From Eledone cirrhosa (Eukaryota): 64,000 bases of DNA. Every line of letters begins with the position of its first letter. Position 1 is the stretch's first letter. Shown piece after piece: positions 1 through 58,478 of this stretch. The notes beneath the pieces were generated by a model, which saw nothing but the letters and a program-made list of their open reading frames with translations, did no database searches and was not told where the DNA came from. The stretch covers positions 295,988,001 to 296,052,000 of the forward strand of contig OZ024743.1 in the NCBI GenBank assembly GCA_964016885.1. The letters run 5' to 3'. The translations under genes and the position numbers were made by a program.

Positions 1-3000
1 TTGGTGTTGGTGTTGGTGTTATTGTTATTGTTATTGTTGGTGTTGGTGTTGGTGTTGGTGTTATTGTTATTGTTATTGTTATTGTTATTGTTATTGTTGG
101 TGTTGGTGTTGGTGTTGGTGTTATTGTTATTGTTATTGTTATTGTTGGTGTTGGTGTTATTGTTATTGTTATTGTTGGTGTTGGTGTTGGTGTTGGTGTT
201 ATTGTTATTGTTATTGTTGGTGTTGGTGTTGGTGTTATTGTTATTGTTATTTTTATTGTTATTGTTATTGTTATTGTTATTGTTGGTGTTGGTGTTGGTG
301 TTGGTGTTATTGTTATTGTTATTGTTATTGTTGGTGTTGTTGTTGGTGTTATTGTTATTGTTATTGTTGGTGTTGGTGTTGGTGTTATTGTTATTGTTAT
401 TGTTATTGTTATTGTTGGTGTTGGTGTTGGTGTTATTGTTATTGTTATTTTTATTGTTATTGTTATTGTTATTGTTATTGTTGGTGTTGGTGTTGGTGTT
501 GGTGTTATTGTTATTGTTATTGTTATTGTTGGTGTTGGTGTTGGTGTTATTGTTATTGTTATTTTTATTGTTATTGTTATTGTTATTGTTATTGTTATTG
601 TTATTGTTGGTGCTGGTGTTGGTGTTGGTGTTATTGTTATTGTTATTGTTGGTGTTGGTGTTGGTGTTATTGTTATTGTTATTTTTATTGTTATTGTTAT
701 TGTTATTGTTATTGTTGGTGTTGGTGTTGGTGTTGGTGTTGGTGTTATTGTTATTGTTATTGTTATTGTTGGTGTTGGTGTTGGTGTTATTGTTATTGTT
801 ATTTTTATTGTTATTGTTATTGTTATTGTTATTGTTATTGTTGGTGTTGGTGTTGGTGTTGGTGTTGGTGTTATTGTTATTGTTATTGTTGGTGTTGGTG
901 TTGGTGTTATTGTTATTGTTATTTTTATTGTTATTGTTATTGTTATTGTTATTGTTGGTGTCGGTGTTGGTGTTATTGTTATTGTTATTTTTATTGTTAT
1001 TGTTATTGTTATTGTTATTGTTGGTGTTGGTGTTGGTGTTATTGTTATTGTTATTTTTATTGTTATTGTTATTGTTATTGTTATTGTTGGTGTTGGTGTT
1101 GGTGTTATTGTTATTGTTATTTTTATTGTTATTGTTATTGTTATTGTTATTGTTGGTGTTGGTGTTGGTGTTATTGTTACTGTTATTGTTATTGTTGGTG
1201 TTGGTGTTGGTGTTATTGTTATTGTTATTGTTATTGTTGGTTTTGGTGTTGGTGTTATTGTTATTGTTATTGTTATTGTTATTGTTAGTGTTGGTGTTGG
1301 TGTTGGTGTTATTGTTATTGTTATTGTTACTGTTGGTGTTGGTGTTGGTGTTGGTGTTATTGTTATTGTTATTGTTATTGTTGGTGTTGGTGTTGGTGTT
1401 ATTGTTATTGTTATTGTTATTGTTATTGTTGGTGTTGGTGTTGGTGTTATTGTTATTGTTATTGTTGGTTTTGGTGTTGGTGTTATTGTTATTGTTATTG
1501 TTATTGTTATTGTTGGTGTTGGTGTTGGTGTTGGTGTTATTGTTATTGTTATTGTTGGTGTTGGTGTTGGTGTTATTGTTATTGTTATTGTTGGTGTTGG
1601 TGTTGGTGTTGGTGTTATTGTTATTGTTATTGTTATTGTTGGTGTTGGTGTTGGTGTTATTGATATTGTTATTGTTGGTGTTGGTGTTATTGTTATTGTT
1701 ATTGTTATTGTTATTGTTATTGTTGGTGTTGGTGTTGGTGTTGGTGTTATTGTTATTGTTATTGTTATTGTTGGTGTTGGTGTTATTGTTATTGTTATTG
1801 TTGGTGTTGGTGTTGGTGTTGGTGTTATTGTTATTGTTATTGTTGGTGTTGGTGTTGGTGTTATTGTTATTGTTATTGTTATTGTTGGTGTTGGTGTTGG
1901 TGTTGGTGTTATTGTTATTGTTATTGTTATTGTTGGTGTTGGTGTTGGTGTTATTGTTATTGTTATTGTTGGTGTTGGTGTTGGTGTTATTGTTATTGTT
2001 ATTGTTATTGTTGGTGTTGGTGTTGGTGTTATTGTTATTGTTATTGTTATTGTTGGTGTTGGTGTTGGTGTTATTGTTATTGTTATTGTTATTGTTATTG
2101 TTGGTGTTGGTGTTGGTGTTATTGTTATTGTTATTGTTATTGTTGGTGTTGGTGTTGGTGTTATTGTTATTGTTATTGTTATTGTTATTGTTGGTGTTGG
2201 TGTTGGTGTTATTGTTATTGTTATTGTTATTGTTATTGTTATTACTATTGTTGGTGTTGGTGTTGGTGTTTTTGTTATTGTTATTGTTGGTGTTGGTGTT
2301 ATTGTTATTGTTATTGTTATTGTTGGTGTTGGTGTTATTGTTATTGTTATTGTTGGTGTTGGTGTTGGTGTTGGTGTTATTGTTATTGTTATTGTTATTG
2401 TTGGTGTTGGTGTTGGTGTTGGTGTTATTGTTATTGTTATTGTTATTGTTGGTGTTGGTGTTGGTGTTGGTGTTATTGTTATTGTTATTGTTATTGTTAT
2501 TGTTGGTGTTGGTGTTGGTGTTGGTGTTATTGTTATTGTTATTGTTATTGTTATTGTTGGTGTTGGTGTTGGTGTTATTGTTATTGTTATTGTTATTGTT
2601 GGTGTTGGTCTTGGTGATATTGTTATTGTTATTGTTATTGTTATTGTTGGTGTTGGTGTTGGTGTTATTGTTATTGTTATTGTTATTGTTATTGTTATTG
2701 TTGGTGTTGATGTTGGTGTTATTGTTATTGTTATTGTTATTGTTGGTGTTGGTGTTGGTGTTGGTGTTATTGTTATTGTTATTGTTATTGTTGGTGTTGT
2801 TGTTGGTGTTATTGTTATTGTTATTGTTGGTGTTGGTGTTGGTGTTATTGTTATTGTTATTGTTATTGTTATTGTTGGTGTTGGTGTTGGTGTTATTGTT
2901 ATTGTTGGTGTTGGTGTTGGTGTTGGTGTTATTGTTATTGTTATTGTTATTGTTGGTATTGGTGTTGGTGTTATTGTTATTGTTATTGTTATTGTTATTG

Positions 3001-5586
3001 TTATTGTTGGTGTTGGTGTTGGTGTTATTGTTATTGTTATTGTTATTGTTGGTGTTGGTGTTGGTGTTATTGTTATTGTTATTGTTATTGTTGGTGTTGG
3101 TGTTGGTGTTATTGTTATTGTTATTGTTATTGTTAGTGTTAGTGTTGGTGTTGGTGTTGGTGTTGGTGTTGGTGTTATTGTTATTGTTATTGTTGGTGTT
3201 GGTGTTGGTGTTATTGTTATTGTTATTGTTATTGTTGGTGTTGGTGTTGGTGTTATTGTTATTGTTATTGTTATTGTTAGTGTTGGTGTTGGTGTTATTG
3301 TTATTGTTATTGTTGGTGTTGGTGTTGGTGTTGGTGTTATTGTTATTGTTATTGTTATTGTTATTGTTGGTGTTGGTGTTGGTGTTATTGTTATGTTTAT
3401 TGTTATTGTTGGTGTTGGTGTTGGTGTTATTGTTATTGTTATTGTTATTGTTGGTGTTGGTGTTGGTGTTATTGTTATTGTTATTGTTATTGTTATTGTT
3501 GGTGTTGGTGTTGGTGTTATTGTTATGTTTATTGTTATTGTTGGTGTTGGTGTTGGTGTTGGTGTTATTGTTATTGTTATTGTTATTGTTGGTGTTGTTG
3601 TTGGTGTTATTGTTATTGTTATTGTTGGTGTTGGTGTTGGTGTCATTGTTATTGTTATTGTTATTGTTATTGTTGGTGTTGGTGTTGGTGTTATTGTTAT
3701 TGTTATTTTTATTGTTATTGTTATTGTTATTGTTATTGTTGGTGTTGGTGTTATTGTTATTGTTATTGTTATTGTTGGTGTTGGTGTTGGTGTTATTGTT
3801 ATTGTTATTTTTATTGTTATTGTTATTGTTATTGTTATTGTTATTGTTATTGTTATTGTTATTGTTGGTGTTGGTGTTGGTGTTATTGTTATTGTTATTG
3901 TTGGTGTTGGTGTTGGTGTTATTGTTATTGTTATTTTTATTGTTATTGTTATTGTTATTGTTGGTGTTGGTGTTGGTGTTGGTGTTATTGTTATTGTTAT
4001 TGTTATTGTTGGTGTTGGTGTTATTGTTATTGTTATTTTTATTGTTATTGTTATTGTTATTGTTATTGTTATTGTTGGTGTTGGTGTTGGTGTTGGTGTT
4101 GGTGTTATTGTTATTGTTGGTGTTGGTGTTGGTGTTGGTGTTATTGTTATTGTTATTTTTATTGTTATTGTTATTGTTATTGTTATTGTTATTGTTGGTG
4201 TTGGTGTTGGTGTTATTGTTATTGTTATTTTTATTGTTATTGTTATTGTTATTGTTATTGTTGGTGTTGGTGTTGGTGTTATTGTTATCGTTATTTTTAT
4301 TGTTATTGTTATTGTTATTGTTATTGTTGGTGTTGGTGTTGGTGTTATTGTTATTGTTATTTTTATTGTTATTGTTATTGTTATTGTTATTGTTGGTGTT
4401 GGTGTTGGTGTTATTGTTACTGTTATTGTTATTGTTATTGTTGGTGTTGGTGTTGGTGTTGGTGTTGGTGTTATTGTTATTGTTATTGTTATTGTTGGTT
4501 TTGGTGTTGGTGTTATTGTTATTGTTATTGTTATTGTTAGTGTTGGTGTTGGTGTTGGTGTTATTGTTATTGTTATTGTTACTGTTGGTGTTGGTGTTGG
4601 TGTTGGTGTTATTGTTATTGTTATTGTTATTGTTGGTGTTGGTGTTGGTGTTATTGTTATTGTTATTGTTATTGTTATTGTTGGTGTTGGTGTTGGTGTT
4701 ATTGTTATTGTTATTGTTGGTTTTGGTGTTGGTGTTATTGTTATTGTTATTGTTATTGTTATTGTTGGTGTTGGTGTTGGTGTTGGTGTTATTGTTATTG
4801 TTATTGTTGGTGTTGGTGTTGGTGTTATTGTTATTGTTATTGTTGGTGTTGGTGTTGGTGTTGGTGTTATTGTTATTGTTATTGTTATTGTTGGTGTTGG
4901 TGTTGGTGTTATTGTTATTGTTATTGTTGGTGTTGGTGTTATTGTTATTGTTATTGTTATTGTTATTGTTATTGTTATTGTTGGTGTTGGTGTTGGTGTT
5001 GGTGTTATTGTTATTGTTATTGTTATTGTTGGTGTTGGTGTTATTGTTATTGTTATTGTTGGTGTTGGTGTTGGTGTTGGTGTTATTGTTATTGTTATTG
5101 TTGGTGTTGGTGTTGGTGTTGGTGTTATTGTTATTGTTATTGTTATTGTTATTGTTATTGTTGGTGTTGGTGTTGGTGTTGGTGTTATTGTTATTGTTAT
5201 TGTTATTGTTGGTGTTGGTGTTATTGTTATTGTTATTGTTGGTGTTGGTGTTGGTGTTGGTGTTATTGTTATTGTTATTGTTGGTGTTGGTGTTGGTGTT
5301 GGTGTTATTGTTATTGTTATTGTTGGTGTTGGTGTTGGTGTTATTGTTATTGTTATTGTTGGTGTTGGTGTTGGTGTTGGTGTTATTGTTATTGTTATTG
5401 TTGGTGTTGGTGTTGGTGTTATTGTTATTGTTATTGTTATTGTTGGTGTTGGTGTTGGTGTTGGTGTTATTGTTATTGTTATTGTTATTGTTGGTGTTGG
5501 TGTTGGTGTTGGTGTTATTGTTATTGTTATTGTTGGTGTTGGTGTTGGTGTTATTGTTATTGTTATTGTTGGTGTTGGTGTTGGTG
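1..5586. repeat. Compound hexamer array of alternating (TTGGTG)n and (TTATTG)n blocks; runs off the window start
   Basis: Directly visible. Hexamer phase is kept throughout, which explains the 1873-aa L/V ORF. Confidence 0.97.
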
Positions 5587-5732
5587 ATTTTGTTAAGGCT
5601 GTACTTGGTGGTGGTGTTCTAGTATATGTTAGTGTTGCGGGTGTTGTTGTTGATGTTGATGTTGTTGGTGTTTGTGTTCATGTTGTTCTTATTGATGTTA
5701 TTGGTGTTTACGTTGATAGTGTTGATGTTGTC

Positions 5733-15611: not shown

Positions 15612-18600
15612 ATGGCAAAAAGTACAAGTCTCCTTCGACCAAATCGCAACTACAACCGTTGTATACAGTGGAGCTACGAGCTTAACAAAGAATTATATGA
15701 AGCATACAAACAAGCTGAACCCCAAAAGTTCGGTTTTATGCAAAGGCTAAAACTTTATGGAACTCCAAACACCCAGAATTAGACTTTTCTCCAAAGCATT
15801 TAAATGAACAGGCAAAACGTATCATTAGATGTAAATTGATACATCTAACGGAATTGAGTGATACTACAAATACAGCCCTTGTAGACAACCACCCCTCCTC
15901 CACTGACAGACAAAGAGAATGGCTAGCTAAATCTAACAGTGAACAGCTCACCAACAATTTTGCTGAAATCCATCCCACTTCCACTGAAGAACAGCTAGAA
16001 AGGTCCGCTAACTCTAGTAGTAATTGCCACCACATCAACAACGAGGCTGAAATTCATGACTCTACTGAACAAACAGAACACCAAAAACTTGTGGACACCT
16101 TACAAGTGATATGGAACGATATGTTTCAAGAGATACACAGCCTTAATGTGAGTGACAGACCATACAACACCAGAATCAGTAAAGAACCCACTAAATTGGA
16201 ATTGGAAGCGGTGAACGAAATAGCTGGCAATTATCTGAAGGCTATACGATCTAAAGGTGTAGAAACGACATTTGAAACACTTAATATTTTGTTATATGTT
16301 TCAGCTGTCACATTGCTATCATATAACACACATCTAAAACCACGCAATCAAGATACAAACAGAAAGCCTGAACCAGCGTGGATGCGAAATTTAAAAACCA
16401 AAATTTTGTCCCTGAGACGAAGTATCTCTCACATCGCAGTCGTTATGAAATGCAACATAGAGAGCAACTTCACACGACACCAGGAAGACCTAAAAAAAAA
16501 AGTTAGAGAGACGATTTGGAGATACAAAATTTAAAACTTTGAACTCCAAATTACACCAGTTACAACAGAAAGACTAAAATATAAGTCAACAGCACATAAA
16601 CGACAAGTGCTAAATAGATTGTTTGCCAGAGATCCTAAATCAGTTTATCGCAGCTTCGGTGGCAAAAGCTCAATCCCTGTAAATGACACCCCTTCAAAAG
16701 AACAGGTTGAGAGCTACTGGAGATCTGTATGGGAAACGGATGACGGATTCAACAGACAAACTAATTGGCTAAAAGAACTGGAACAGGAATACTGCCAACA
16801 TGTCCAGACAAAACAATATGACATTGATGGGTCAATACTGGAAAAAGCTCTAGAAAAAATGTCGAATAGGAAATCGCCAGGCCCAGACCTCATTACAGGA
16901 TACTGGTTGAAGAATTTCACTTTCTATCGGCAAGATCTCATACAGAAACCATTAAAGGCACACAAGAACTGCCCAGATGGTTATCAACTCCCACTACTCT
17001 CCTCATTCCCCAAAATAGCCAAACCACCCTTGCTAAAAATTACCGCCCAATAGCCTGCCAAAACATCATGTATAAATTATATACTGGGTGCCTTAACCTG
17101 TCCTTACAGGATCACTGTTCTACCAACAACATCATAACACCTGAGCAAGCTGGTGGAAAGAGGGAGGTGTGGGGTTGCATAGATCACCTACTAACTAATA
17201 AAATGATTCAGGAAAAAACAACAAAGAATCGCAGAAAACATGACTGTGGTGTGGCTGGACTATCAAAAAGCATTTGATAGTGTACCTCATGGGTGGATTA
17301 TTAAGGCTTTACAGTTAGCCAAAGTCCCACAACCATTGGTAGCTGCTGTTGAACGCCTGACCAAAAACTGGTACACCAATTTGATCCTTAGAGGTGAGAA
17401 GGAGCAGGTTAAGACTGATAAGATACATTACCAGAAGGGCATCTTTCAGGGTGATAGCTTGTCAGTGCTACTCTTCGTTCTCTCACTAAATCCACTATCT
17501 TACCTACTCAGGAAACAAGGTGGACGAAGAAGTGGGTCCAGAAGTATCTCCAATCTTTTCTTTGTTGATGACCTGAAGTTGTATGGGTCAAATATCAATG
17601 ACATCAAGAAACAATTGGATCTCATTACAGAATTTTCGACCGACATCAAAATGAAATTTGGTGAGTCCAAGTGTGCATATTTGGCAGTAAAACGTGGAAG
17701 AGCTGTGCCCTCCTCTAGAAATCTAGAGATGAACGGCCTGACAATACAACCTCTACAGTCAGGTGACAACTACAGATATCTTGGACAGGATGAGAATGAC
17801 AGATATGATGGACCCATAAATAAGGAGAGAACCAGAACTGAATACCTCAGAAGAGTAAAGAAAATATGGTCATCAGAACTGTCAGCGTACAACAAATACA
17901 TTGCCCACAATACTTATGCTGTGCCAATTCTAACGCCAACATTTGGCCTGCTGAACTGGTCATTGCAAGAACTAAGTGAGATGGATGTTAGAACTCGCAA
18001 ACTTCTCAGTGTTACTGGGAACTTTAACATCAATGGTAATGTGGATAGGCTATATTTCTCACGCAAGGAAGGTGGCCGGGGTCTAAAATCAATATTAACA
18101 ACATATGAGACCCGGATAGTAACACTGAAGCAACACCTTCAACAGAGGAAAAAGGTTGGCAACCATCTTGCCCAGGTTTATGAGCATGAAAAAAAAAATC
18201 ATTAGAATAGCGACTGATCTGGAGGAGAGATATGGAATAAAGCCTGATATAAATATCTCACCCAGAGAAATCGGAAGATCCTATTCAATGTTCAAACAAG
18301 ATGAAAAAATTGACCAATTTACAGAAAAAGTTGTGCATGGATACTTGAGATGTAAAACACAGACCATAGAGGGGATAAACCACTCAAAAAGCCTGGCATG
18401 GAGTTCCGACAAGTTTATGACATCACACCTTGAGGGATATCTCTATGCAATACAGGAACAAGAACTCCCTACCAAATATCTGCTGCACAAAAGAGGAGGG
18501 CCAGCAGCTGACAATAAATGTAGGCTATGTAAAACAAAGATCGAGGATGTAAGCCACATTATTGCCAGCTGCGAAAGAATGTCATCTCGCTACTACCTCC

Positions 18601-19091
18601 CCATGAGACACGATGGGGTAGCTAGAACCATCTGGAATGCACTTCGGAAAACAAAATTAACAACAAACGAGGAAGAATATATTGAGACAGATGGCACTAA
18701 GGAATACTGGTGGAACCTGAAAATAAAAACTGCCACCAAATTAAAGCACAACCGGCCTGATATTGTTGTTTGGGACCACACATTGAAAACGTGTTCTGTT
18801 GTGGAAATCAGCTGCCCACTTGATGTAAACGTTGTCAGAAAAATACAAGAGAAGGAGGACATCTACGCACCATTGATGAGGAGTTTACAAATCCAGTATC
18901 CAAGATACACCTTTAGCTTCATACCCATCATTATTGGAGCTAAGGGTTATATACCAACCCGCTTGGACCAAAGTATGACTGAACTTGGATTTGCGGGCAA
19001 AAAGCACAGCTCCCTAATTCATAGTCTTCAAATGCCTGCGATAGCTGGCACCTTCAAAATTTGCAAAACATTCTTGCGATTCAAGGGATGA
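15612..19091 (+). mobile_element. Near full-length R4/Dong-like non-LTR retrotransposon; single ORF (RT, CCHC, restriction-like endonuclease) broken by frameshifts
   Basis: ATG at 15612; KSPGPDLITGYWLK, EQAGG, WLDYQKAFDSVPH, GIFQGDSLS, FFVDDLKLY, REGGRGL-like, CRLC..HIIASC, RHD, RPDIVVWD..EISCP. Confidence 0.9.
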
Positions 19092-29521: not shown

Positions 29522-31939
29522 TAGGGAAACATCCAACTTCGTACAGTTTGACATTAATGACTGCTACTCCTCCATCTCCCCAGTTACCCTAGATAAAGCG
29601 CTAGCCTTTGCCAAAAAAAACTCGGGCCTAACCTCTGATGAAATTAAAATAATACTAGCTACTAGGACTATCATTAGATTCGAAAATAGTTACTGGGAAC
29701 GAAAAAACACACAGAATAGCATCGATATCACAATGGGATCTAGTGACGCAGCTCAGGTAACAGACATAGTTGGAACATATATAGCGCATAACTTACATAA
29801 GGAATTTAATAACCTCCAAGGAGGAATTTATAGAGACGACACACTTCTTTTAGCTAAGAACTTAAATAATCAAAACATGGAAAATTTATGGAAAAACATC
29901 AGAGTCTTCTTCAACAAACTAGGCCTAGGTATCACTTTCGAACTTAACTCTAAAAAAGCAAACTTCTTAGATGTAACACTCAACCTAAACACATGATTAA
30001 TAGAGCCCTTCCATAAAAATAACAAGAATCTAATCAACATTAGTTATAACTCAAACCACCCTCGATCCATAATTAACTCCATAGCACATAGTATATCTCT
30101 CAGAATATCCCGCCTATCTTCTAACCCAGAGAATTTTAACGAACACGCAAACTATTATAACATAGCTTTACATAAGGTAGGACATAAGGAGGGTCTCATA
30201 TACATACCAGATAGAGACAGCAACAACAAACCTAACGATAGCTACACTACCCACACCTATAGAAATAACAAACATAGGACTAAACATAGAATTAGACAAC
30301 GGGCACCAGAAATAACTGAACCGGATACTAACATAAGGACCCCTAGGAACTATAGAAAATCCAGAGATAGGAAATACATATGGTTCAATCCAATATTCAA
30401 CTCCTCTATAAAAAACAAACTACCTTCTACATTCTTTAAGCTAATTGACAAACACTCCCCTAAACTACACAAATACCATAAAATCTTTAACAGAAAAACT
30501 ATCAAACTATCTTACTCCACTGCAGCCAACATAGAATCACACATGCATAAAATCAACTACAAAAGAATCTCTAAAGAAAATAACCTACCAACATACACCA
30601 TAGCACCAAATACAAAACGCAAACACATAACAACATCACAACCACACACACACATCAGGGCGCATCACAACAAAACATTAATAGGCCTAAATATCAACTC
30701 ACCCATAACAACATGCAAAACCGCAACTGAGAACCTGCACACAGGAAGGCCTCCAATTGTAACTACCACCTACCGGATAAGTGCCCACTACAAAATAGGT
30801 ACCTGGATTCAAACATGGTGTACCTGTGTACTATAAATTTAGGCAACTTAACATGGCACTACATAGGTTCCACGGCTGGGGAGTTCACAAAAAGATGGTG
30901 TGTTCACAGACATTCCATGAAGAACCGTAAACTGGAGAACTCTACAACGCTGGCCAATAAAATCTGGCAGCTTAAGAACATAAACCAAGAATATGGGATT
31001 AGGTGGTCAAAATTAGTGGGAGCAAGGGCCTACAACAATGGAATGTGCCACTGCGGACTTTGCAATATGGAGCTATTCCATATTTTAAGGTACGATAAGA
31101 TGCTGCATAACAGCAAAATAGAAAGATCAATTTTCTGCAGGCACAAAGCAGCTACCAAGTTCACAAATTTCAAACCACCATGATTCGACCCAGCAATCCC
31201 AAAATTCGAACTGAACCACCCGAATTTTAACGTACGGAATATATCGTACCGCACTGTTATTAGCTGTCAACTAACCGACTGGTCACTAGATCATAAATCT
31301 GCTAATTCTTCTTTCACTCTCTCTCTCCCTGAAGCCACATCAACACCATTAAGATAAGTCAATCAGCAGGCCAAATATTTACCACACACACATATCAAAA
31401 TCCCCCTTCCCTATCCATCCTTAGCCCTTATGTCTCATGCTCGTATCTCTCACTTAATTTTTAATTTATTGTTTTCTCTTTTATCTGTCATTCTCTACCT
31501 GTATGTATGTATCGAATATTGCTTATCATGTTAGTACTGCCTCCAATCCCCATCCTTATACAGACACTTACTCACCACCACCACTATTATCAACTATCGT
31601 ATTCTGTACTTATATACTTTTACTTATTTTTTATGTATTTCTTTATTTTTTTATTTTTCGTCTTTTTACATCTGTAACTTCTTTACCTATTTATCATTAT
31701 ATTTTATTATTGATGATATTGTTTTGATTCTACGCTGTATCTCTATATATACCATTGCCATATGTGAGTTCTCTAGTATTCTGAGGATTTCATCAGAGGT
31801 AAATAGTGTATTGAAGGTCGAATGACGCAACTTCGAGTGATTAGCGGCCTTTAGACTCACCTGATCAATGAAACAATTGTTAATACTTGAAATAAAGCCC
31901 CTTGTTGTACAGCCGACCATGTATTCTTCAATCTTTCAC

Positions 31940-44745: not shown

Positions 44746-44801
44746 AGATAGATAGCTAGATCGATCGATCGATCGATCGATCGATAGATAAATAGATAGA
44801 T

Positions 44802-44866
<65 letters not shown>
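44746..44866. repeat. (GATA)n/(GATC)n microsatellite, left boundary of the Tx1 array
   Basis: Directly visible. Confidence 0.95.
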
Positions 44867-44867
44867 T

Positions 44868-45064
44868 CATTATTTGCCACTGGGGCGTACCTAATGGGAC
44901 ATTACAAGACGGGGGTTTTACATAACAATCATACAACTTTAACATTAATAAATAACAATAAACTATATGTAATAAAATAACAATTGAAATCCCCAATAGG
45001 GGGGAACGTTACTGCAGGGTTGTTTTACACCCCGAGGATAGAACAACCCTCAACACCAGGAACA
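44868..45064 (-). mobile_element. Tx1-clade LINE copy 1 (3' UTR only)
   Basis: Similar to 47522-47722. Confidence 0.8.
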
Positions 45065-45076
45065 ATAGATAGATAT

Positions 45077-45930
45077 GTTTCTTTATTAGCCACAGGGGCA
45101 CAAAAGAAGAGGACAATTACAAAGGGAGGAGTTTACATACAATAAAAACATGTAAAATATTATCACAAATGCAAATTAAAAGTTAATCGATTTTCCCCAA
45201 TAGGGGGAGACAGTTCATATGGGTAGCACATACCCCCGAAAAAAATGTGCAACCCTCATCTCCAGCAGTACGAAGAGTTTGTACCCCTTTCCTCTCTTCC
45301 TCTTTTCCCTCAAACTACAGTCTGATATAGAGAGAAGGCCCATTCACTCGGGCCATTCTTGCCACTTTCACCGACCTTTCATAAAACTTGCTGGGGTACA
45401 GCACCTCTCTCTCCATCCTGATTCTTCTTCCAAAGTGGTATTTGAAAAAAATAATCAGTTGTTGGCCGGAGAGATGGGTGTCTGACCTCAGCCCTTTTAA
45501 CCTCGTCCACCATGCAACCTCTTTCGCCATAGCTATCACACAAAGGAAAACCGCCTGTCCTTCGTTTTTTGAAGAAGGATGGCGGTTTGATCATGACAAT
45601 GGACTCGGTGGTCAATCGGATTGGTCCTACCCGCGACAATAGTCGTTCTACATAGCCCCACAGGTCGGTAACGCCCGGGCAGTGTATGAATGCGTGCGCG
45701 ACGGTTTCTTCGTCTCGCACGCATCTCGGACAGATCTTTTTCGAAGGGTCCCTGCTCGGGCGCCCATGTCTGTAGAGCTTGTCACGAATTGGTAGAGCTC
45801 CTCGGTAGCACTGCCAGTCCAGGGACTTTTGGAAGTTGTCCATCGGTCCCGGGCGGAAGGTCCTACCGAATAGACTGGCCAGTTCGTCTTCTTCCGCGCC
45901 TAGAGTTTTTCCGAGCGCGTCGTCGCACAC
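45077..45930 (-). mobile_element. Tx1-clade LINE copy 2 (5'-truncated)
   Basis: ORF2 C-terminus: WQCYRGALP, CPRC..ETVAHAFIHC. Confidence 0.88.
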
Positions 45931-45952
45931 AATAGATAGATAGATAGATAGA

Positions 45953-47484
45953 TTTCTTTATTTGCCACAAGGGCGCACAAGAAAAGGGTACAATACAAAG
46001 ACACATGCCGGGGATTTTACATACAATCGTGTAAAAATATTATTAAAACAAGAAAATTTAACAATTGAAATCCCCAATAGGGGGGAGACGTTACAAATAG
46101 GTTGTTTAATACCCCTTTGATAGAACACCCCTCAACTCTAGGAGCGTGTTGTGCAAAAGCTCCTTTCTTCCTTTTGCTCTCATCTTCAACCTACAGGTTT
46201 ATATACAGAGAAGGCCCAATCACTCGGGCCATTTCTGCTACATTCACCCCACCTTTCAGTAAATTTACTGGGGTGCAGTGCCTCTCTCTCCCCTTTGATT
46301 CTCCTTCTAAAGTGGTACCTAAAGAAGGGAATGGGTTGTTGTCCGGAGAGAAAGGCATCTGTCCTCAGTCCTCTCAATCTCGTCCACCATATAATCTCTT
46401 TTACCATAGCCACTATACAGAGGAAAACCGCCTCTCTTTTGTTTTTGAAAGAAGTTGGCGGTTTGATACTTACTATGGACTTGGCAGTCAACTGGATTTG
46501 TCCCATACGTGACAGCAGTTGTTCTGCGTAGTTCCACAGGTCGGTTACGCCCGGGAAGTGTACAATTGCGTGCAAGACGGTTTCAATGTCCTTCTCGCAT
46601 CTTGAACACGTCCTCTTGGAAGGATCCCTGCCGAGGCGTTCGTGCCTGTAGATCTTGTCTCGAACTGGTAGAGCTCCTCGGTAGCACTGCCAGGCCAGGG
46701 ACCTGGATAGTTGTCCATAGGTCCCGGGCGGAAAGTACTACCAAACAGTCTGGTGAGCTCGTCGTCTTCGATGCCCAGAGTCTCTCCGAGTACGTCGTCG
46801 CACTTGTAACGCACTAACCCTCTATAGAATGTCGAAGTGGAGTCTCCACTGATTGCTGTGCCCGCTTGAAAGAGGATTGTGGGCGCCTGAGAGCATTCAA
46901 TGTGCCAGGCGCCCATTTTCTTCGGTCTCCGCTTGACCCAGGACTGCAACTCCGTCAGCGAGACAAGTTGCGGGAAGGCTTGTCTCAGAAATGGGGCCCA
47001 CACCGGTTGTTCGGTGAGGAATACCTGTAGATGTCGTAGCCTCAGCGCGTGTTTGCGCATCATCAGCCACGGCATTCTCAGCCCTCCGTTGGAAGGGTGC
47101 TGACAACAGACGGATCTCCTCACCAGTGGAGCCTGGAAGAGCATGCGTTCCATCTTGGTGAGGTATTCACGGGGACAAGGCACGACGGTCAAGCGGTAGT
47201 AGATGACGGACGCTATAAAAGTGTTCGCCACCTCCGCTCGACCTTTCAAGGATAGTTTGCACTCTGCCCAATTCTGGGTGAGTGCAAATACCTTGTTTCA
47301 ATTTTTTTCCACCTGGAGGTCCGGACCGAACCAGACGCCAAGCAATTTCACCGGTCGTTCCGTCCAGCGTCCGGCGATGCTGTCGGACGGTATCGGTTTG
47401 CCACTCCACGTTCCGAGTTGCAAACCTACAGACTTGTCCGGGTTCAGTTTTGCTCCTGTGAGCCTTTCGTATTCCTGCAGTAAG
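45953..47484 (-). mobile_element. Tx1-clade LINE copy 3 (5'-truncated)
   Basis: LLGVWFG, LSLKGRAEVANTF, GGL.MP, C-terminal zinc-binding region. Confidence 0.88.
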
Positions 47485-47518
47485 GATAGATAGATAAGTG
47501 GTTAGATAGATAGATATC

Positions 47519-50500
47519 TTTCTTTATTTGCCACAGGGGCGTACAAAAATGGGACATTACAAAACCTGACGGTGGGGGTTTTACATAAAAATAACTTTAA
47601 CATTAATAAATAACAATAAACTATACATAATAAAATAACAATTGAAATCCCCAGTAGAGGAGAACGTTACTGCAGGGTTGTTTTACACCCCGTGGATAGA
47701 ACGACCCTCAACACCAGGAACACGTTTTGTAGGTGTTCCCGTCTTCCCTCTGTTTATCTTCCTCAACTTACAGGTTTATATACAGAGAAAGCCCATTCAT
47801 TCGGGCCATTTTTGCCACATTCACCCACCTTTCAGCGAATTTACTGGGGTGTAGCACCCCTCTCTCCACTCTCATCTTCCTTCTGAAGTGATACTTAAAG
47901 AAGGGGATAAGTTGTTGTCCGGAGAGAAAGGTGTTTTCCCTCAGTCATTTTAACCTCGTCCACCATATTACCTCTTTCACCATAGCCACCAGACAGAGGA
48001 AAATCGCCTCTCCTTCGTTCTTAAATGAAGTCGGCGGGGTGAACCTCACGATGGACTCGGCTGAAAACTGGATGCGTCTCACACGTGACAGCGGCTGTTC
48101 GACATAATTCCACAGGTCGGTCACCCCTGGGCACTGAACAATTGCGTGCAGAACGGTTTCAATGTCCTGCTCGCATCTTGGACAGGATCTCTGCCAGGGC
48201 GTCCATGCCTGTAGATTTTGTCTCGAACTGGTAGAGCTCCTCGGTAGCACTGCCAGGCGAGAGACCTCTGAAAGTTATCCATAAGCCCTGGACGGAAAGT
48301 CCTCTCGAACAGACTGGTCAGTTCGTCCTCCTCGATGCTTAGAGTCTCCACGAGAACGTCGTCGCACTTATCCTCCACTAACTCTGTATAGAATGTCGAA
48401 GTAGAGTCTCCGCTGATTGCCGTTTCCCCTTGGTAGACGGCTGTGAACGCCTGTAGGCACTCGAGGTGCCAGGCACCCATTTTCGGTCTTCGCTTGACCC
48501 AGTACTGCAGCTCTGTTACTGAGACGAGTTGTGGAAGAGCTTGTCTCACAAACGACAGCCACACCGGTTCACCGGTCAGGAATACCTGGAGATGGCGTAG
48601 CCTCAGCGCATGTTTGCGCATCATCAGCCACGGCATGCCCAGCCCTCCGTTAGAAGGGTGTTGACAGCAGATGGATCTCCTCTCCAATGCAGCCTGTTTC
48701 TTCCAAGGAACTTGAAGTGTAGGCGTTCCATTTTGGTAAGGTATTCGCGGGGGCAAGGCACGACTGTCAAGCGGTAGTAGATGACGGGCCCTATGTAAGT
48801 GTTCGCCACCTCCGCTCGACCTTTCAAGGAGAGTTTGCACTCAGCCCACTTCTGGGTGAGTGCAAACACCTTCGCCGTGACCTCGTTCCAGTTCTTGTCT
48901 ACCTGGAGGTCTGGACCGAACCAGACCCCGAGTAATTTCACCGGTCCTTCCGTCCAGCGTCCAACGACACTGTCGGAAGGCATGTGTTTGCCTCTCCATG
49001 TGCCGAGTTGTTTGGGTTTAGTCTTGCTCCTGTCAACGTTTCGTATTCCTGTAATAGGTTGCTGATTACCCTGATTTCTGAGGTTTTCGACACCATTACC
49101 GTTGTGTCGTCGGCATAGGCTGACGTTGCTTTCCGCAGTGCGGGTTCGATCGGGATGCCCTGCAACAGCTCCAATTTCCGCAGTAACGGCTCGAGAGTCA
49201 GTACATACAGAATGGAGGAGAGAGGGCATCCCTGACGGATGGAACGTATGATTTGGAATATCTTTGATAGGTAGCCATTCACCTTGACTGCCGAGCAGAT
49301 GGTGGTGTGCATGGCAGCGATCCAGCCTCTGAAGACGGACCGAAGCCGGCCGCCTTGAGAACTGCTTCCAAGTATTGATGGTCGACCCTATCAAATGCCT
49401 TAGACTGATCTAAATTGATCAGAGCTCCACCAAAGCCAGGTTTACACCCAACCCTCTCTATGATGTATCGCATGAATTTGAGGTTGTCGTGTATGGAACT
49501 GGTCGGGATTGCACACATTTAGAATTCCCCTACTAGGTTCTCGACGACAAGCGCCAGCCTTACTGCTAACACCTTGGCCAAAATCTTTAACTCTGGTTTG
49601 AGTAGAGTTATGGGCCTGAAATTGCTTATCTCATCCCCCTTGTTCTCATCTTTCCTGATCAGCGTTACTACGCCTCTGCCTACAGAACTGGGAATCCTCC
49701 CGTTCTGCTGCCAGTTGCAGTAGACCGCTTCGAGGACGCCAGAGAACAAGTCTGGTATGCCTATGTAAAACTCATAGGGTAACCATCTAAACCGGGAGAT
49801 TTGCGTTTCCCGCAGCGGCCTAGAGCATCTATTTCGCCCGCTGTGATCGGCCTTTCGCAGCTCTCCGCATACCTGCTCGAGAGTCGCGGTACGCCGTCGA
49901 GGTAGGAGCTGAAGTCCATCACCTCGCTCTATGTCCCGCTTTGCCCGAACAGTTGTGCAAAATGCTGCTGGAAGGCCGCGCACATCTGCTTGGATTCAAG
50001 TATAATGCGTCCATCTTTGTCTTGCAAAGACCGAATTGTGGATTTGTTGCCACTCTTCGCCTCTGCCACTCGGGCCAGGCTAACAGCTTTGGCTCCCTCG
50101 TTTCTTAGAGCACGTGTTCTACTTCTGACAATACAACCTTCGTGTTTCACGTTGAAGAACTGGTCTAGTGCCGTTTTCGCCGCTAGTACGTCAGCTGTAC
50201 TGCCATCCCTAAGTGCCTCTTCTATTTTAGCTACCAGTTCCTTTTCAGTTTTGTTTTTTTCTAAAGCTACTTCCTTGCTAAATGCTATTGATTCTATTCT
50301 AATTGCTTTCTTGAGAGAGCTCCACCACCTGTTGTTGACGATCGCCCCCGTCAACTGGCACTTAACTAAGGTGCTAATCCGTTTACTGTAGGCCTTACGC
50401 GCTGGGAGCGACATGTTTAGCTTCCAGTATACGGGTCCCTGTCTATGTATTCTATCAAGGTTGACTACGCAGGTTTTGGGGGTTCCTCTTCATTCTCACT

Positions 50501-52023
50501 TGGAGATGTAGAGGTTCCCGTATCTGAGACTTCTGAATCAGGGGTAGGTGGGAGGGTATGTTGTGTGGTGGAGTGTTTGTGCAGGTGTTTGTGGAAGTAT
50601 TTGACAGAGGGGGAGAGGCAATGGAGGGTTTTTCAGTGGGATTTTGTGTGGGAGATTGTCTCTGGTCTGTGGTGGTGTGGGAGTGGATGTTGCAGGTGTT
50701 TGTCTTGTGTTTGGTTTGGAGTGTTGATGTCGGGGTTTTGGTGTTGGTAATAACACCTTGTTTGTCCTCGGTTTGTTTTAGAGGGGGCAAAAGGCCTTTA
50801 AGTGTGTGGTTTTCCCACACTTATGGCACTGAGGTCTTTTCCCCTCCACTAAAATGGAGATGACATCTTCCTCAAGGACGATCCTGTCCGGTATTTTCTC
50901 AATTCTCTCTGGCCTCATTTGTACCAGAACCTCGATGCATGTTCCAAACCAGTTATGCCGGTCTGTCCTGTCTACAGATAGGAGGGTGTCCTCATCCTCC
51001 TTCGGGATGCAGCGTAGGATCCACCATATGTTGACCTCTGCTGGGATCCTGGTTATTTTTATTTTGTAGAATGGTCTTCCCATGTATGTGGGGAAGAAAA
51101 TGTGTTGATCCGTTTTTATTGGGTGAACCGAGTGTTTTTGTGCTAGAGTTTAGCTCTTAAAGAGCACTGACACACTTCCATACTGTTTACCTCTTTGGAG
51201 ATATGCGACGTCTGGCTGATGTCATTTAGTGCAGCTTTTATAGTGCTTGTTGGGAGCGTTATGGGTTTTTTGGTAGTGATGTCAACTTTTCTATAAATTA
51301 GCTTCTTTTTCTGTGTAATTTCTCTTACTTGTGGGGGTATGTGTGTGTGGGGGGTGTCTCCCACAAACGTCACATAGTTGGAAGCTTCTTCCAAATATTG
51401 GGACTTTTGGGAAATGTCCATGGAGTAGTATTTAAAATCATGTTGCTTAGCAACTGTTGCTGCAAATGAAATTTTGTTATTGTTGTTGTTGGTGGTGATG
51501 GTGGTCTCATTCGTTGTGTTGCCACTGATTCCTTTTATTGTGTTGTTGTTGTTCTCATTTATTGTGCTGTTGTTGTTGGTTGTGGTGGTATTCGTGTTTG
51601 CTACATATACTTCCTTCTGTGTGTGGATACATGTGACGTTTGTGACGTCAGGCGTGTTCAGTTGCTTACAAGCAGCTGAAGCTTGTTTCTCTTCTAAATG
51701 TTGAGGCGATAATGTTGGCATTCCTTTGTCCATGTCTGCTACTACCTGCTGGTCAAGTAGGCATCTTCTTGTTTTGACAAAAAAGTAGGTGCCTTTACTT
51801 CAGCCATTTTAAAAAAATTGAAGCGTTTTCCAAAATCTTTTTTTCGAAAATATTGTGGATGTTTTTGCCCTGAGGGGCACGGTATTTTGGGAGAGTGACC
51901 AGATCAAAATTTGACCTGTCAGTCCCTCTACAAATTGGTATAAAAATAAAAGTTCACAATGACGAATTTCTAATGAAATTTAAACAAAACTTACCGAGCA
52001 AGTTTAACACATGTGTCCATCCC
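47519..52023 (-). mobile_element. Tx1-clade LINE copy 4: intact 5' end, ORF1 with CCHC knuckle, endonuclease largely deleted, RT retained
   Basis: CHKCGKTTHLKAFC; NFRPITLL, INLDQSKAFDRVDH, IRQGCPLS, AYADD; 5' end GGGATGGACAC. Confidence 0.9.
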
Positions 52024-52036
52024 AGAGATAGATAAC

Positions 52037-55000
52037 TTTCTTTTTATTTGCCACCAGGGCATCAAAAAGTGGGACAAGTACAATGGGGGGAGTTTACATA
52101 AAAAGGCGTCCTCAATAAGGAGGAGGCAATAACAATATATAAAAAATAATATATAAAATATAACAAAAATAAATTTAATAACAAAATCCTCAATAGGGAG
52201 GAGGCGCCTTGGGGGGTCGCACCCCCCCCCCCACCGAAAAAAGTGTGCAACCCTTCTCCTTAGGAGCACAGAGAGGGGGTGCTCCCTTGATCTTTCATCT
52301 TCCTCACCTATAGTCTGATGTAGAGTGAAGGCCCATTCACAAGGGCCATTCTCGCCACTTTCACCCATCTTTCATAAAAACGCCTGGGGTGCAGCACCTC
52401 TCTCTCAATTCTGATCCTTCTTCCGAAATGATATCGGAAGAAACGGACCAGTTGTTGGCCAGAGAGAAAGGTGTCTGACCTCAGTCCTTTCAGACACGTC
52501 CACCATACAACTTCTTTCGCCATGGCTATTACGCACAGAAACACCGCCTCTCCTTCGTTTTTGAAGAGGGGAGGCGGCTTGATCGTTACATTAGACTCGG
52601 TAGTCAACCGGATCGGTCCCACCCTTGACAGCAGACATTCGACATAGCCACACAGATCGGCAATGCCCGAGCAGTGTACCTATGCGTGTGCAACGGTTTC
52701 CTCGTCGGACACGCATCTGGGACAGATCTTTTTCGAGGGGTGCCTGCCCGGGCGCCCGTGTCTGTAGAGCCTTTCTCGAGCAGGCAGAGCCCCTCGGTAG
52801 CACTGCCAGGCCAACGACCTCTGGAAGTTATCCATGGGTCCCGGGCTGAATGTCCTACCGAACAGGTTGGCCAGTTCGTCTTCCTCCATGCCTAGGGCTT
52901 CTCCGAGGGCGTCGTCGCACCTGCTAACCACCAGCCCTCTATAGAATGACGAGGTGGATTCTCCACTGACATCCGCTCCGCCTGCCAGAGAGCCGTAAGC
53001 GTCTGGGCACACTCGGTGTGCCAGGCGCCCAGTTTTCTTGGTCTTTTCTTGACCCAGGATTGCAGCTCGGTGAGCGAGACGAGTCTCAGAAAGGCTCGCC
53101 TCACAAACGGGGCCCTCACGGGTTGACCAGTGAGGAATACCTGGAGGTGCCGTAGCCTTAATGCGTGTTTACGTATCATTAGCCACGGCATCCCCAGCCC
53201 TCCTTTCGAAGGGTGTTGACAGCAGATGGATCTCCTCACCATAGGAGCCCGCTTCTTCCAGAGGAATTGTAAGAGTGCGCGCTCCATTTTGGCGAGCGTT
53301 TCCCTTGGGCAAGGCACGACGGTCATGCGGTAGTAGATGACGGACGCTATATAAGTGTTCGCCACCTCCGCCCGACCTTTCAGGGACAGTTTGCACTCGG
53401 CCCACTTCTGGGTCAGTGCAAGTACCCTGTTCGTGACCACACCGCAGTTCTTCTCCACCTGGAGATCTGGTCTGAATCAGACCCCGAGCAACTTCATCGG
53501 GCCCTCCGTCCAGCTCCCGACGACGCCATCGGAGGGCATCGATCTACCCCTCCACGTGCCAAGTTGCAGACTGATCGACTTGTCCCGGTTCAGCTTAGCC
53601 CCTGTAAACCTTTCGTACTCTTCCAGTAAGGTGCCGATCGCTCCGATTTCCGAGGCCGTCGACACCATTACTGTTACGTCATCGGCGTAGGCCGACACCG
53701 CTTTCCGCAATCCCGGTTCCAACGGGATGCCCTGCAACAACTCCAACTTCCGCAGCAGTGGCTCTAGAGTCATTACATACAGAAGGGAAGTGAGAGGGCA
53801 CCCTTGTCGGATGGACCGCGCGATATCGAACGGCTCCGAGAGGTAGCCGTTCACCTTGACCCTAGAGCAGATGCGGCTGCTGTGCATGGCAGTGATCCAG
53901 CCCCTGAAAACGGGTCCGAAGCCTGCCGCATCTAGCACCGCATCCAGGTAACCATGGTCGACCCTATCGAACGCCTTAGATTGATCCAAGTTGATCAGGG
54001 CCCCACCAAAGCCGGGTTCTTTCCCAACCCTCTCTATGATGTATCGCATGAGGTGGAGGTTGTCGTGGATGGACCTGGACGGGATAGCACATGTCTGCGC
54101 ATCTCCCACCAGGTTGCCCACGACAAGCGCCAACCTCTTTGCTAGCACCTTGGTCAAAATCTGTAACTCTGTATTAGCAGAGTTATGGGCCTGAAATTAT
54201 TTATATCGTCCCCCTTGTTCTCGTCCTTCCTCACTAGCGTGACTACACCCTTGGTCACAGCACAGGGAATTCTCCCGTTCTGTTGCCAGTTGCAGTAGAC
54301 CGCCTCGAGGAGATCGGGGAACAAGTCCAGCATAGCTAGATATAGTTCGTATGGAAGACCATCGAGACCCGGGGATTTACGTTTGCCGCATTGGCTCAGC
54401 ACGTCCTCTATCTCAGCGGTTGAAATCGGCTCCTCGCAGGACTTCGCCTCCCTGTCCGAGAGACGCGGCAGGCCGTCGAGGTATGGATCGAAGTCCACTT
54501 CCCCAACCGGTTCCTCGCCCCTTCCGAACAATCTGGCCCAGCTAACAGCTTTGGTCTCCTCGTTTCCCAGAGCACGTATTTTGCTTCGGACTATGCAGCC
54601 TTCGTGTTTCGCGTCGAAGATCTGGCCCAGGGCCGTTATCGACGGCCACGTCGCCGCTTCTAATTGCCTCTTCTACACTATCTACCAATTCCCTTCCCTT
54701 CCTATTTCTACTAATTTCTACTACAAATCCTTACTAAATTCTATAGAGACTACTCTAATCTCTCTTTTGAGAGATCCCCACCACCTGCTGTTGACGATGG
54801 CGCCCGTCAACCGCTCCTTAACTAAAGTGTTAATCCGGTCCCTGTAAGCCTTACTTGCCGGTAAGGACAAGTTAAGCTTCCAGTAACCGGGTCCCTGTCT
54901 ATGCGTTCTGTCAAGGTTGACCATGCAGGTCACTAACTTGTGGTCTGAATAGCCAACCATGAGCATTTTTGGACAACTTAAAAAGTCCTTATCCTTATTT

Positions 55001-57622
55001 CTAACTAAGAACCTATCTAGGTACGACCTCGATGATCCGCTACGGTTTGCCCAAGTCCAGGTTGGCGCAGTCGGAAAATCTAGTCGATATCTATCGGCCA
55101 GGTCAAATCGACCGATTATCTCTATCGGGACAGGCCCCTACGTAGTCCCAACGTGCATCTAGGATACCATTCCAGTCCCCCACTAATAGCAAGGAGCGGG
55201 ACGTCCCTAGAAAAGTCTCCAGACGATGGAAGAAGTCCGGCCGCGTTGACCCGAAAGGGCCGTAGACGGCTACCAGCCTAAACGCTCCGCCTTCACCACT
55301 GCCAAGGTCCAGAACCACTAGTCGACCCTCCGGGTACAAATGTACCGTCTGTGTTGCGAGACCCAGATGTTTTTGCAGCAGAACGACAACTCCACCCCCA
55401 CCTCCGGGCTGACAGAGAGATGCCTGCATCTCAAAGTCATTAAAGGTGGGGGCCAGCTGTCGCACGTTGCTGATCCGGGCCTCGCAAATAACCATCACAT
55501 CTATATGTTGTGACCTGAGGTCATTTAGAAGCATTGCTTGCTTCCAAGTTGAGCCCAGGCCACGCGCATTTAGACAGCCTACTCTTAGCATAGCCATGTT
55601 GGTGGTGAAGAGAAAAGGCACTTACCTCTCTGCGTCCCGGGTATCGGGCTGCACAATTTCCATGAGGGTGGGGGATGGGTTGTTGGGTGGGGTGGTGGTT
55701 TGTGGAAGTGTAGGGGCATCAGTGTGTTGTGTGGTTGGGGTGTTTGGAGTTGTATGGGTGTTTGGGGAGGGGGTGGGAAAGTTTTTTTAGGAGGACGCTA
55801 TTAATGGGCCCTACGCGGGGGAGGAGGGGGGAGGGGGGCACGCCCTCTTTAAAGTTGTTTTTTAGTGTTTTATATGTGTCCTCTGGGGCCTTAATCATTT
55901 TGAGGTGGGGGAAATCTCCTGCCTGGGTGAAGTTAGGCTCTTGGGTTACTAAATTGTTGTTGTATACAATGTTTAGCAGTTTTTTTATTTCTTGTGTTTC
56001 TGTATGTGTATGCATGTTTTTGTTTCTGTGTGGTGTTTTTTGTTTGCTGTTGTTGTGTGCTCTTTTGTGTTGGTGTCAGTGTTATGTTTTGGGGAGGGGT
56101 TGTTTTCATTTGTGTGTCTGAGTTGTGTTTTCTTTGTTTTCTTTTGATTGTGTGGAAGTGCTCCTCCTCGTCTGACGACGAACGAGGGTCATCTTCCGCG
56201 TTGAAGGGGAGGGGTAGATTTTCGGGTTGTGTTTGCGGTGCGGGTATTTTGGAAATTGTTTTTTTTTAGTGGGGGGATGGGTTGGACAGTGTTTTGTTTT
56301 GGTTTGAGCTGTGGTTGTTGTTTTTGTAGTGGTGGTTGTGGTGATTGTGTTGGTTGTGCAGTTGTTGGTGGTGTAGGCAGGATTGGGGTTTTCTTTTTAA
56401 GTTGAGGACAGACAGCCCTCATGTGACCTCTGACTCCACAGAGGTAACACGAGGGCCGCCTACCCTCAACGGTAATGTTGATAAAAGTTTGATCATCCAG
56501 TATGACGTGTTCAGGGATCTGGGCGATCCTTTCGGGCCTCATTTGAACTACAAGTTCGAGGCCCAGTCCACTGAACGCGTCACCCGATGCCTTTCCCATG
56601 GATATTAGTGTGTCATCGTCTAGGTCCAGGAAACCTGTCAATACCCACCATATGTCCATAATCAGAAGGATTGTGTGCATTTTTATTTTTTGTAACCTTC
56701 TACCCATGTACGTAGGGTAGAAGGTGTATGCGGTGGATGTGATTGGTTTTATGGACAGTTTCACTGCTGTGTCCCTGTCCTTCATGAGAATGGATAGACT
56801 CCCGTAGAGTCTATCCTTCTGAATGAATATGATGTTTTTCATGACATCTTTTAAAACCAGCTCTATCTAACTCTGTGATGGTTGAGCTGGTTTTTTGCTT
56901 TTGTTTGAGACTGTCCTAAACATGTTTAGGAGTCACTGGCATTTTAGTTCCGGGGGAGGGGGGATAAAAATGATCCATTTTTCCCCGTATACTGTATTTT
57001 TTGGCAACTGCCAGTAGCTCCTTCGCTTTGCTTATATCTACTGGCAGATAGTCGAGGGTTTTCCTTGCCGTCTGGGCGAAGGAGACCTTTTCCTTGTTTG
57101 TGTTGCTGTTGTAGTTGGTGGTGTTGTTGTTATCACTGTTGTTGTTATCATTGTTGTTGTTATCATTGTTGTTGGTGTTGTTGTTTCTGTTGTCTTTATT
57201 GTTGCTGTTGTTGTCGTTGTTGTTGTTGTTGTTTTCGGTTTCTTGTGTCGTTGTGGCTACATCAAGTTGTCGGTCAGCAGGTGGAGAAAGTTCTCCCTCT
57301 GGCTGACCTCTGCTTTTGGCAGCTGCTGCTGTGCCAGTGGCAGGGGGAAGCTGTGAGTTTAGCTTCCCTTTTCTTTCTTTGAATGTTGGTGAAGCTGCTT
57401 CAGCCATTTTTATCAAAGAAGGAAATTTTTCGAAAGATAACAATTTTTTTTTTCAACACAATTTCGCCTAAAGGCGTAGAATAATTTGAGAGACTGACCA
57501 GATCAAAATTTGACCTGGCAGTCCCTCTACAAAATGGTACAAAAATGAAGGTTTACAGTCAAGAATTTCTGTAGAAATTTAAGCAGAACTTACTCAGCAA
57601 GTTTCACGCGTGTGTCCATCCC
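52037..57622 (-). mobile_element. Tx1-clade LINE copy 5, full length (~5.6 kb), frameshifted
   Basis: ORF1 ~57407-55622 (CYLCGVRGHMRAVC); ORF2 ~55597-52308 with APE endonuclease (CLNARGL, GDWN, SDHKLV, GPGYWKLN), RT (QSKAFDRV, RQGCPL, YADD) and CPRC..H..C. Confidence 0.93.
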
Positions 57623-57624
57623 AG

Positions 57625-57655
<31 letters not shown>

Positions 57656-57656
57656 T

Positions 57657-58438
57657 GTTTCTTTTATTTGCCACAAGGGCATCAAAAGTGGGACAAGTAC
57701 AATGGGGGGAGTTTACAAAACAAGGCGTCCTCAATAGGGAGGAGGCAATAACAATATATAAAAATAAAATAAAATATAACAAAAAATAGAATTATAACAA
57801 AATCCTCAATAGAGGATTTTGTTATAAAATATAACAAAAAATAAAATTTATAACAAAATCCTCAATAGAGAGGAGGCGCCTTGGGGGGTCGCACACACCC
57901 CCGAAAAAGTGTGCAACCCTTTTCCTCAGGAGCACAGAGAAGGGGTGCTCCCTTGGTCTTTCATCTTCCTCACCTATAGTCTGATGTAGAGTGAAGGCCC
58001 ATTCACACGGGCCATTCTCGCCACTTTCACCCATCTTTCATAGAAACGGCTGGGGTGCAGCACCTCTCTCTCCATCCTGATCCTTCTTCCGAAATGATAT
58101 CGGAAGAAACGGACCAGTTGTTGGCCAGAGAGAAAGGTGTCTGACCTCAGTCCTTTCAGACGCGTCCACCATACAACCTCTTTCGCCATGGCTATTACGC
58201 ACAGAAACACCGCCTCTCCTTCGTTTTTGAAGAGAGGAGGCGGCTTGATCGTTACAATAGACTCGGTGGTCAACCGGATCGGTCCCACCCTTGACAGCAG
58301 TTGTTCGACATAGCCCCACAGATCGGCAATGCCCGAGCAGTGTACCAATGCGTGTGCAACGGTTTCCTCGTCGCACACGCATCTGGGACAGATCTTTTTC
58401 GATGGGTCCCTACCCGGGCGCCCGTGTCTGTAGAGCCT
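57657..58438 (-). mobile_element. Tx1-clade LINE copy 6 (5'-truncated, close to copy 5), followed by (GATA)n at 58440-58478
   Basis: Highly similar to 52037-52770. Confidence 0.9.

Positions 58439-58478
<40 letters not shown>

Follow-up and report, generated by a model that had tools for sequence, protein, structure and literature searches.

The window analysed here, a 64,000-nucleotide stretch of the Eledone cirrhosa genome (contig OZ024743.1, positions 295,988,001 to 296,052,000), contains a head-to-tail array of six retrotransposon copies bounded by GATA-type repeats (window positions 44746..58478). The copies probably represent an abundant lineage of apurinic endonuclease (APE)-type elements that lack long terminal repeats (non-LTR elements), likely of the Tx1 clade, that prefers (TATC)n in one orientation, likely because its endonuclease (EN) nicks the GATA strand. 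Across the genome, copies of this lineage have a site preference, a fixed orientation, target-site duplications (about 11-23 bp, most of them starting with TATC), and same-orientation neighbours.

The lineage is abundant in the 3.0-Gb genome. Exact matches to the 27-30-nt 3′ termini of the four subfamilies in the array gave 547 ends of the type carried by copy C5, 612 of the C4 type, 5,846 of the C2 type and 1,133 of the C3 type. These counts are lower bounds (at least 8,138 in total), and reversed-pattern controls gave 0. The C2 type is the most abundant of the four, and NNTATCT follows 5,230 of its 5,846 ends.

The insertion preference was examined mainly in the first 100 of the 547 C5-type matches by position, which lie on contig C1 and the start of contig C2. 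The search pattern itself contains no TATC, and up to 6.5 kb upstream was taken for each copy. Nine of the 100 have an intact 5′ head and 91 lack it; ten of the latter were set aside because the element continues, is inverted or abuts a piece of another element, leaving 81 resolved junctions. Two TATC units, (TATC)2, occur within 25 nt upstream of the truncation junction in 45 of these 81 copies (45/91 if the ten set aside count as negatives). Among 279,300 background windows drawn from 14 arbitrary 10-kb stretches, the share is 0.23%. Same-strand GATA occurs at 0/81 junctions, (TA)4 at 8/81 (background 8.9%) and (TC)4 at 0/81; TTC, TTCC and TTTC were not separately scored, and none is evident in the junction listing. 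Removal of the 18 copies with the 3′ end of another element just upstream leaves (TATC)2 at 30 of 63 junctions. The other three subfamilies carry TATC at 10/25, 6/11 and 8/20 resolved junctions, based on the first 30 matches each with 1.5-kb flanks and rougher junction calls that left 34 of the 90 copies unresolved. The truncation points with 5′ TATC are scattered along the entire element. In the available portions of PMC4494074, a Tx1 family counts as target-specific when more than 20% of its flanks are of a single sequence type; here, the proportions are 45 of 91 for 5′ flanks and 57 of 100 for 3′ flanks. The initial annotation of the window had proposed (TATC)n as the insertion target and named as contrary evidence a lack of GATA at the 5′ junctions of most dispersed copies. 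With (TATC)2 at 45 of 81 junctions, the preference holds genome-wide, though in a relaxed form.

Intact 5′ ends are weaker evidence for the target than the initial annotation supposed, because the last bases upstream are probably borne by the element. Among 526 exact intact heads, TCTCT precedes 301 and TATCT precedes 108; the last few bases before GGGATGG, TCTCT included, are therefore probably element head and not target. Two TATC units lie just upstream in 25 of 28 other loci matched by the C5 head (assessed by eye among the top matches by similarity).

The TATC repeat is target DNA and not only a tail, because the repeat type agrees on both sides of copies and because duplications of unique sequence begin at TATC. 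Informative target-site duplications, defined by at least three matching non-repeat positions, were detected in 16 of 146 resolved copies, compared with a mean of 1.0 and a maximum of 2 in a swapped-pair control. They span 11-23 nt, plus one of 30 nt within a repeat, and 11 of the 16 begin with TATC on both sides. Downstream of the C5-type terminus, the first four bases are nearly fixed (T99, T100, A100 and T95 of 100), and the fifth is C in 81 copies and A in 15. Where this fifth base is C, the 5′ flank is TATC in 50 copies, TA in 1 and other in 23; where it is A, the corresponding numbers are 1, 6 and 5 (Fisher p=1.2e-6 for the TATC and TA cells). A fixed encoded tail would not produce this two-sided agreement. 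TA-type sites account for about 15% of the C5 subfamily, and there the copy ends in TTATA and lacks any added TATC. The best notation for the target is TAT(C>A)TAT.

The element has the layout of the L1 group of APE-type non-LTR retrotransposons, with an open reading frame (ORF) 1 and an ORF2 that comprises an N-terminal APE endonuclease and a reverse transcriptase (RT); 5′ truncation (91 of the 100 sampled copies lack the head), a fixed 3′ end and target-site duplication are all present. In the window, the RT domain is recognised clearly (PF00078, E 3.1e-20), and the EN domain (PF03372, E 9.5e-5) and a zf-CCHC match in ORF1 (E 0.0054) fall below their cut-offs, curated in the case of the EN. 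Elsewhere in the genome, two adjacent intact copies (L322 and L323) are 99.95% identical and carry open frames that span 643 and 1150 codons; whole ORF2 frames also occur in L326 and L328. The existence of such intact, near-identical copies points to recent activity of the lineage. In the intact EN, residues E39, D141, N143, D202 and H227 are invariant across 62 sequences and align with the L1 EN, in which we take them to correspond to the catalytic set. The predicted EN structure (pLDDT 92.2) has the L1 EN as its best structural match (E 5.5e-19, TM 0.80); a PDB sequence search with the degenerate EN frame as query gave no match.

Further subfamilies (L319-L332) differ in their 5′ heads. Among them, one and the same 3′ UTR (untranslated region) is paired with different heads, which suggests swapping of 5′ and 3′ parts between subfamilies. 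In L120 and L145, the 5′ part of the element is inverted, as in L1 twin priming. Many copies (L003-L030, and C4 and C5 in the window) have lost internal segments of between tens and hundreds of bases. All four subfamilies carry GCC-N5-GG(C/T) just 5′ of AATAAA, for example at window positions 52047-52057 (by eye), which could form a 3-bp hairpin.

The nearest named protein homologue is from Argonauta hians (63%), next comes an unnamed group at about 40%, and then Xenopus Tx1L, an order that points to a likely octopod host. No named Kibi, Koshi or Keno protein was among the matches. Tx1L (P14381) is the best-scoring named and characterised protein, with 309 bits against the intact ORF2; a partial ORF2 query gave 201 bits for Tx1L and 107 bits for human L1. 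In a quick RT tree of 63 rows, the lineage joins Tx1L apart from plant and fungal L1, with SH-aLRT (approximate likelihood ratio test) support of 83-92 from an unfinished search over rows without human or other vertebrate L1, Kibi, Koshi or Keno. Together, the Tx1L grouping and the scores above human L1 lend moderate backing to the assignment made in the initial annotation, and the lineage likely belongs to the Tx1 clade. A large sister lineage (P0001-P0016 and P0182-P0247) with about 40% identity and an ORF2 of about 1,150 aa is found in ENA and JGI assemblies. A metagenome scan for the flanks of sister lineages in other animals yielded 18 loci, the longer matches being 26-34% identical, and no TATC runs were seen in the 12 examined.

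Insertion probably proceeds by target-primed reverse transcription from a nick in the GATA strand at about 5′-GATA/GATA-3′ (plus or minus 1-2 nt), where the RNA 3′ end (UAU/UAUC) may pair by a few bases with the freed DNA end and aid priming. Recognition would be relaxed at the fourth base, with C at about 81% and A at about 15% in one subfamily. Each insertion would leave TATC on both sides, allowing later copies of any subfamily to land beside earlier ones, so that head-to-tail arrays would build up. Once complete, the array in the window would have been copied a single time as part of a 55-kb tandem duplication, unless the second copy is an assembly doubling.

A rather unlikely alternative, but the strongest of those considered, is that the same preference arises chiefly from a (UAUC)n RNA tail that pairs at nicks made in AT-rich DNA by a loosely specific EN. 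Priming by tail microhomology has precedents in L2 and RTE elements and counts for this explanation, as do the nearly fixed first bases after the terminus. It is also favoured by the bases upstream of the inferred nick, which are not enriched over background: in the informative duplications they read T 12, A 11, T 11 and C 9 of 16, and the same four positions before any genomic TATCTAT match in 54, 63, 59 and 42 of 84 (per-position counts). Conversely, the TTATA ends of the TA-type copies imply that no long tail was copied, the perfect 3′ repeat run is at most 8 nt in 52 of 100 copies, and three or four paired bases are unlikely to yield an enrichment of about 250-fold. Because so little tail appears to be copied, and because target choice in the Tx1 clade is attributed mainly to the EN in the portions of PMC4494074 available, we favour the EN over tail annealing as the determinant of target choice.

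Some observations weigh against an EN-directed Tx1 lineage with this target. The TATC match upstream of the nick equals background and gives no sign of DNA-level reading across the nick. Furthermore, 36 of the 81 resolved junctions miss the strict TATC test and 15 of the 81 show no duplication at all; some in each group may be later deletions or miscalled ends. Targeting is relaxed, not strict. The Tx1 branch support of 83-92 likewise comes from the unfinished tree search without human L1, Kibi and Koshi.

Neighbouring copies keep the same orientation. Of 190 sampled copies, 70 are followed within 300 nt downstream by a same-orientation element and 1 by an opposite one (a weak match); on the upstream side, the numbers are 31 of 139 and 0. 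A same-orientation neighbour on either side is present for 82 of the 190 copies, against a background of 23 in 462 windows with strands split 11/12 (all neighbour counts exclude three library entries with other repeats nested inside). Mixed-subfamily arrays joined by TATC are common at many other loci. These neighbours and arrays back the proposal of the initial annotation that arrays are built by repeated insertion. In two other organisms (X5 and X9), one listed joint each runs from a 3′ end through TATC or TATCTCTCT to a truncated copy, a weak hint that the habit is shared. Fractions of 0.21-0.69 of sampled ORF2 words are present in sequence runs labelled as seven other organisms.

The element also adjoins long repeat tracts. 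On contig C1, it abuts nine of the first 10 distinct (TATC)6 tracts, eight in the expected orientation, or 6 of 7 when separate loci are counted. From this small local sample, the element may lengthen or seed (TATC) tracts. The same tracts, together with the apparently element-borne TCTCT at intact heads, would fit an element that has no target preference and makes TATC itself, as an encoded 3′ tail and added 5′ sequence. This explanation is improbable: unique-sequence duplications begin at TATC, the two-sided agreement places the repeat in the site, and 5′ TATC occurs at truncation points along the whole element. A broader possibility, which we hold only tentatively, is that a recently active octopod Tx1 lineage with an EN reading (GATA)n both fills and makes most long genomic (GATA)n tracts. 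The target would then be self-renewing: it is duplicated upon insertion, the resulting seeds grow longer, and they in turn receive new copies.

All six copies of the array in the window lie head to tail on the minus strand, and GATA-type runs, given here on the plus strand, flank all seven boundaries. An outer (GATA)n/(GATC)n tract (44746..44867) lies 3′ of copy C1 (44868..45064), which consists of 197 bp of 3′ UTR alone, belongs to the C4 subfamily and is 88% identical to C4. About three GATA units (45065..45075) separate it from the 5′-truncated copy C2 (45076..45930), which retains ORF2 residues 948-1150 and the 3′ UTR and is 93.8% identical to the intact copy L322. Next come (GATA)5 (45931..45953) and the 5′-truncated copy C3 with ORF2 residues 710-1145 (45954..47484), then an interrupted GATA repeat (47485..47516) and copy C4 (47517..52023), whose 5′ head is intact and whose internal deletion removes the end of ORF1 and the EN. 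The junction tract at 52024..52035 reads TTATCTATCTCT in element sense and is followed by the near full-length but degenerate copy C5 (52036..57622). The latter comprises an ORF2 remnant (52311..55612) with the EN at about 55600-54860, the RT and a C-terminal Cys/His region, and an ORF1 remnant with an Asn-rich N-terminus and a zinc knuckle (55640..57404). About eight GATA-type units (57623..57656) precede the 5′-truncated, C5-like copy C6 with ORF2 residues 992-1150 (57657..58439; 92-94% identical to C5), and an outer (GATA)9-10 tract sits at its truncation point (58440..58478). Elsewhere in the window, there are only two plus-strand GATA runs of 8 bp each (11129 and 26143). Read in element sense, every copy has a conserved terminus of the TGG(C/T)(A/T)AATAAA type, with TATC repeats after it.

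All of these copies are defective. Compared with an intact ORF2 found elsewhere in the genome, C5 spans residues 1-1150 but is broken by frameshifts and stops, C4 begins at residue 236 because the EN (residues 1-235) is missing, and the remaining copies are 5′-truncated, with ORF2 starting at 710 in C3, 948 in C2 and 992 in C6. Pairwise identities form four groups and hence four subfamilies: C1 and C4 share 88%, C5 and C6 share 92-94%, values between groups are 74-85%, and C2 and C3 each stand apart. The coordinates and repeat runs bear out the initial description of six same-orientation copies with GATA at all seven boundaries, and the identities agree with its estimate of about four subfamilies.

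The window from ~22.9 to 64 kb, including the array, is repeated 55.25 kb downstream at 96-100% identity over at least 41 kb (L062-L067), and the seven array junctions are identical in the duplicate bar one repeat unit in the first tract. Judging from the sequence, either a 55-kb tandem duplication copied the finished array once or the assembly doubled it; a duplication of a finished array leaves its inside unexplained. The initial annotation had regarded a segmental duplication with identical breakpoints as fatal to repeated insertion: the whole array is indeed duplicated, yet the internal 5′ breakpoints differ in every one of the six copies. An origin of the array by segmental duplication, or by unequal crossing-over at its GATA tracts, is therefore the least probable explanation despite the repeat 55 kb away: the six copies represent four subfamilies, share 74-94% identity and each have a different 5′ end, and mixed-subfamily arrays occur at many other loci. 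Such an origin is refuted for the inside of the array and could have produced near-identical tandem pairs such as L322 and L323.

The window carries other features. Positions 1-5,700 hold 5.6 kb of hexamer repeats (TGTTAT/TGTTGG) in array form, across which open frames run for about 1,870-1,940 codons; one of these frames, on the minus strand, would encode a mucin-like Thr/Pro/Ile repeat if coding. At 15,719-19,091 and 29,997-30,836, there are open frames of 271-332 codons that do not fall in simple repeats.

Microsatellite targeting is established for related elements. In the portions of the literature available, Tx1-clade targets include (TC)n for Kibi, (TTC)n for Koshi and U2 for Keno, crocodilian Tx1 families prefer (TTCC)n or (TTTC)n, and target choice is ascribed to the Tx1-clade endonucleases (PMC4494074). 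Microsatellite targets on record are ACAY, AC, TC, TTC and TAA (PMC3812793), and Togen targets (TG)n (PMC4640811). Like Kibi and Koshi of fish, the lineage described here is APE-type and resides in a short microsatellite with a T...C unit (PMC4494074, PMC3812793), but it targets (TATC)n, with thousands of copies and relaxed specificity; the (TC)n, (TTC)n, (TTCC)n and (TTTC)n targets of the Kibi, Koshi and crocodilian lineages do not appear to be its own. It resembles the crocodilian families in a tetranucleotide preference that is not strict, and differs in the A at the second place of its unit and in having intact, near-identical copies (PMC4494074). Tx1L, with about 30% identity to this lineage, targets the Tx1D transposon, and tandem SINEU-3/Tx1-Mar copies flank a duplicated target as here, the target being a Mariner element; for SINEU-3, the tandem copies are attributed to sequential insertion (all PMC4494074). 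Octopus vulgaris has 13 recently active L1-Tx1 families with 421 insertions (PMC13282606) that may include this lineage; the available main text contains no occurrence of 'target', 'GATA' or 'TATC'. The accessible parts of PMC8869645 and PMC9115989 contain nothing on a (TATC)n target. In the literature searched, (GATA)n/(TATC)n was not found as the target of any Tx1 or other non-LTR element, a scope outside which lie Repbase, Kojima and Fujiwara 2004, and the target lists in Fig. 3 and the supplement of PMC4494074, where a prior note is possible. On the literature searched, (TATC)n would be a new target unit, microsatellite and tetranucleotide targeting by Tx1 families being already known.

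For microsatellite-targeting Tx1 elements, the target unit is an addition and the host phylum is likely one as well. How APE endonucleases choose microsatellites is described as not well understood in the part of PMC3812793 available, and the intact copies permit a direct test of this choice. If most long GATA tracts adjoin the element, GATA microsatellite markers and repeat annotations would be tied to a mobile family. If the target is indeed self-renewing, the intact copies would provide a system for studying how an APE endonuclease is retuned among TC, TTC, TTCC, TTTC and TATC.

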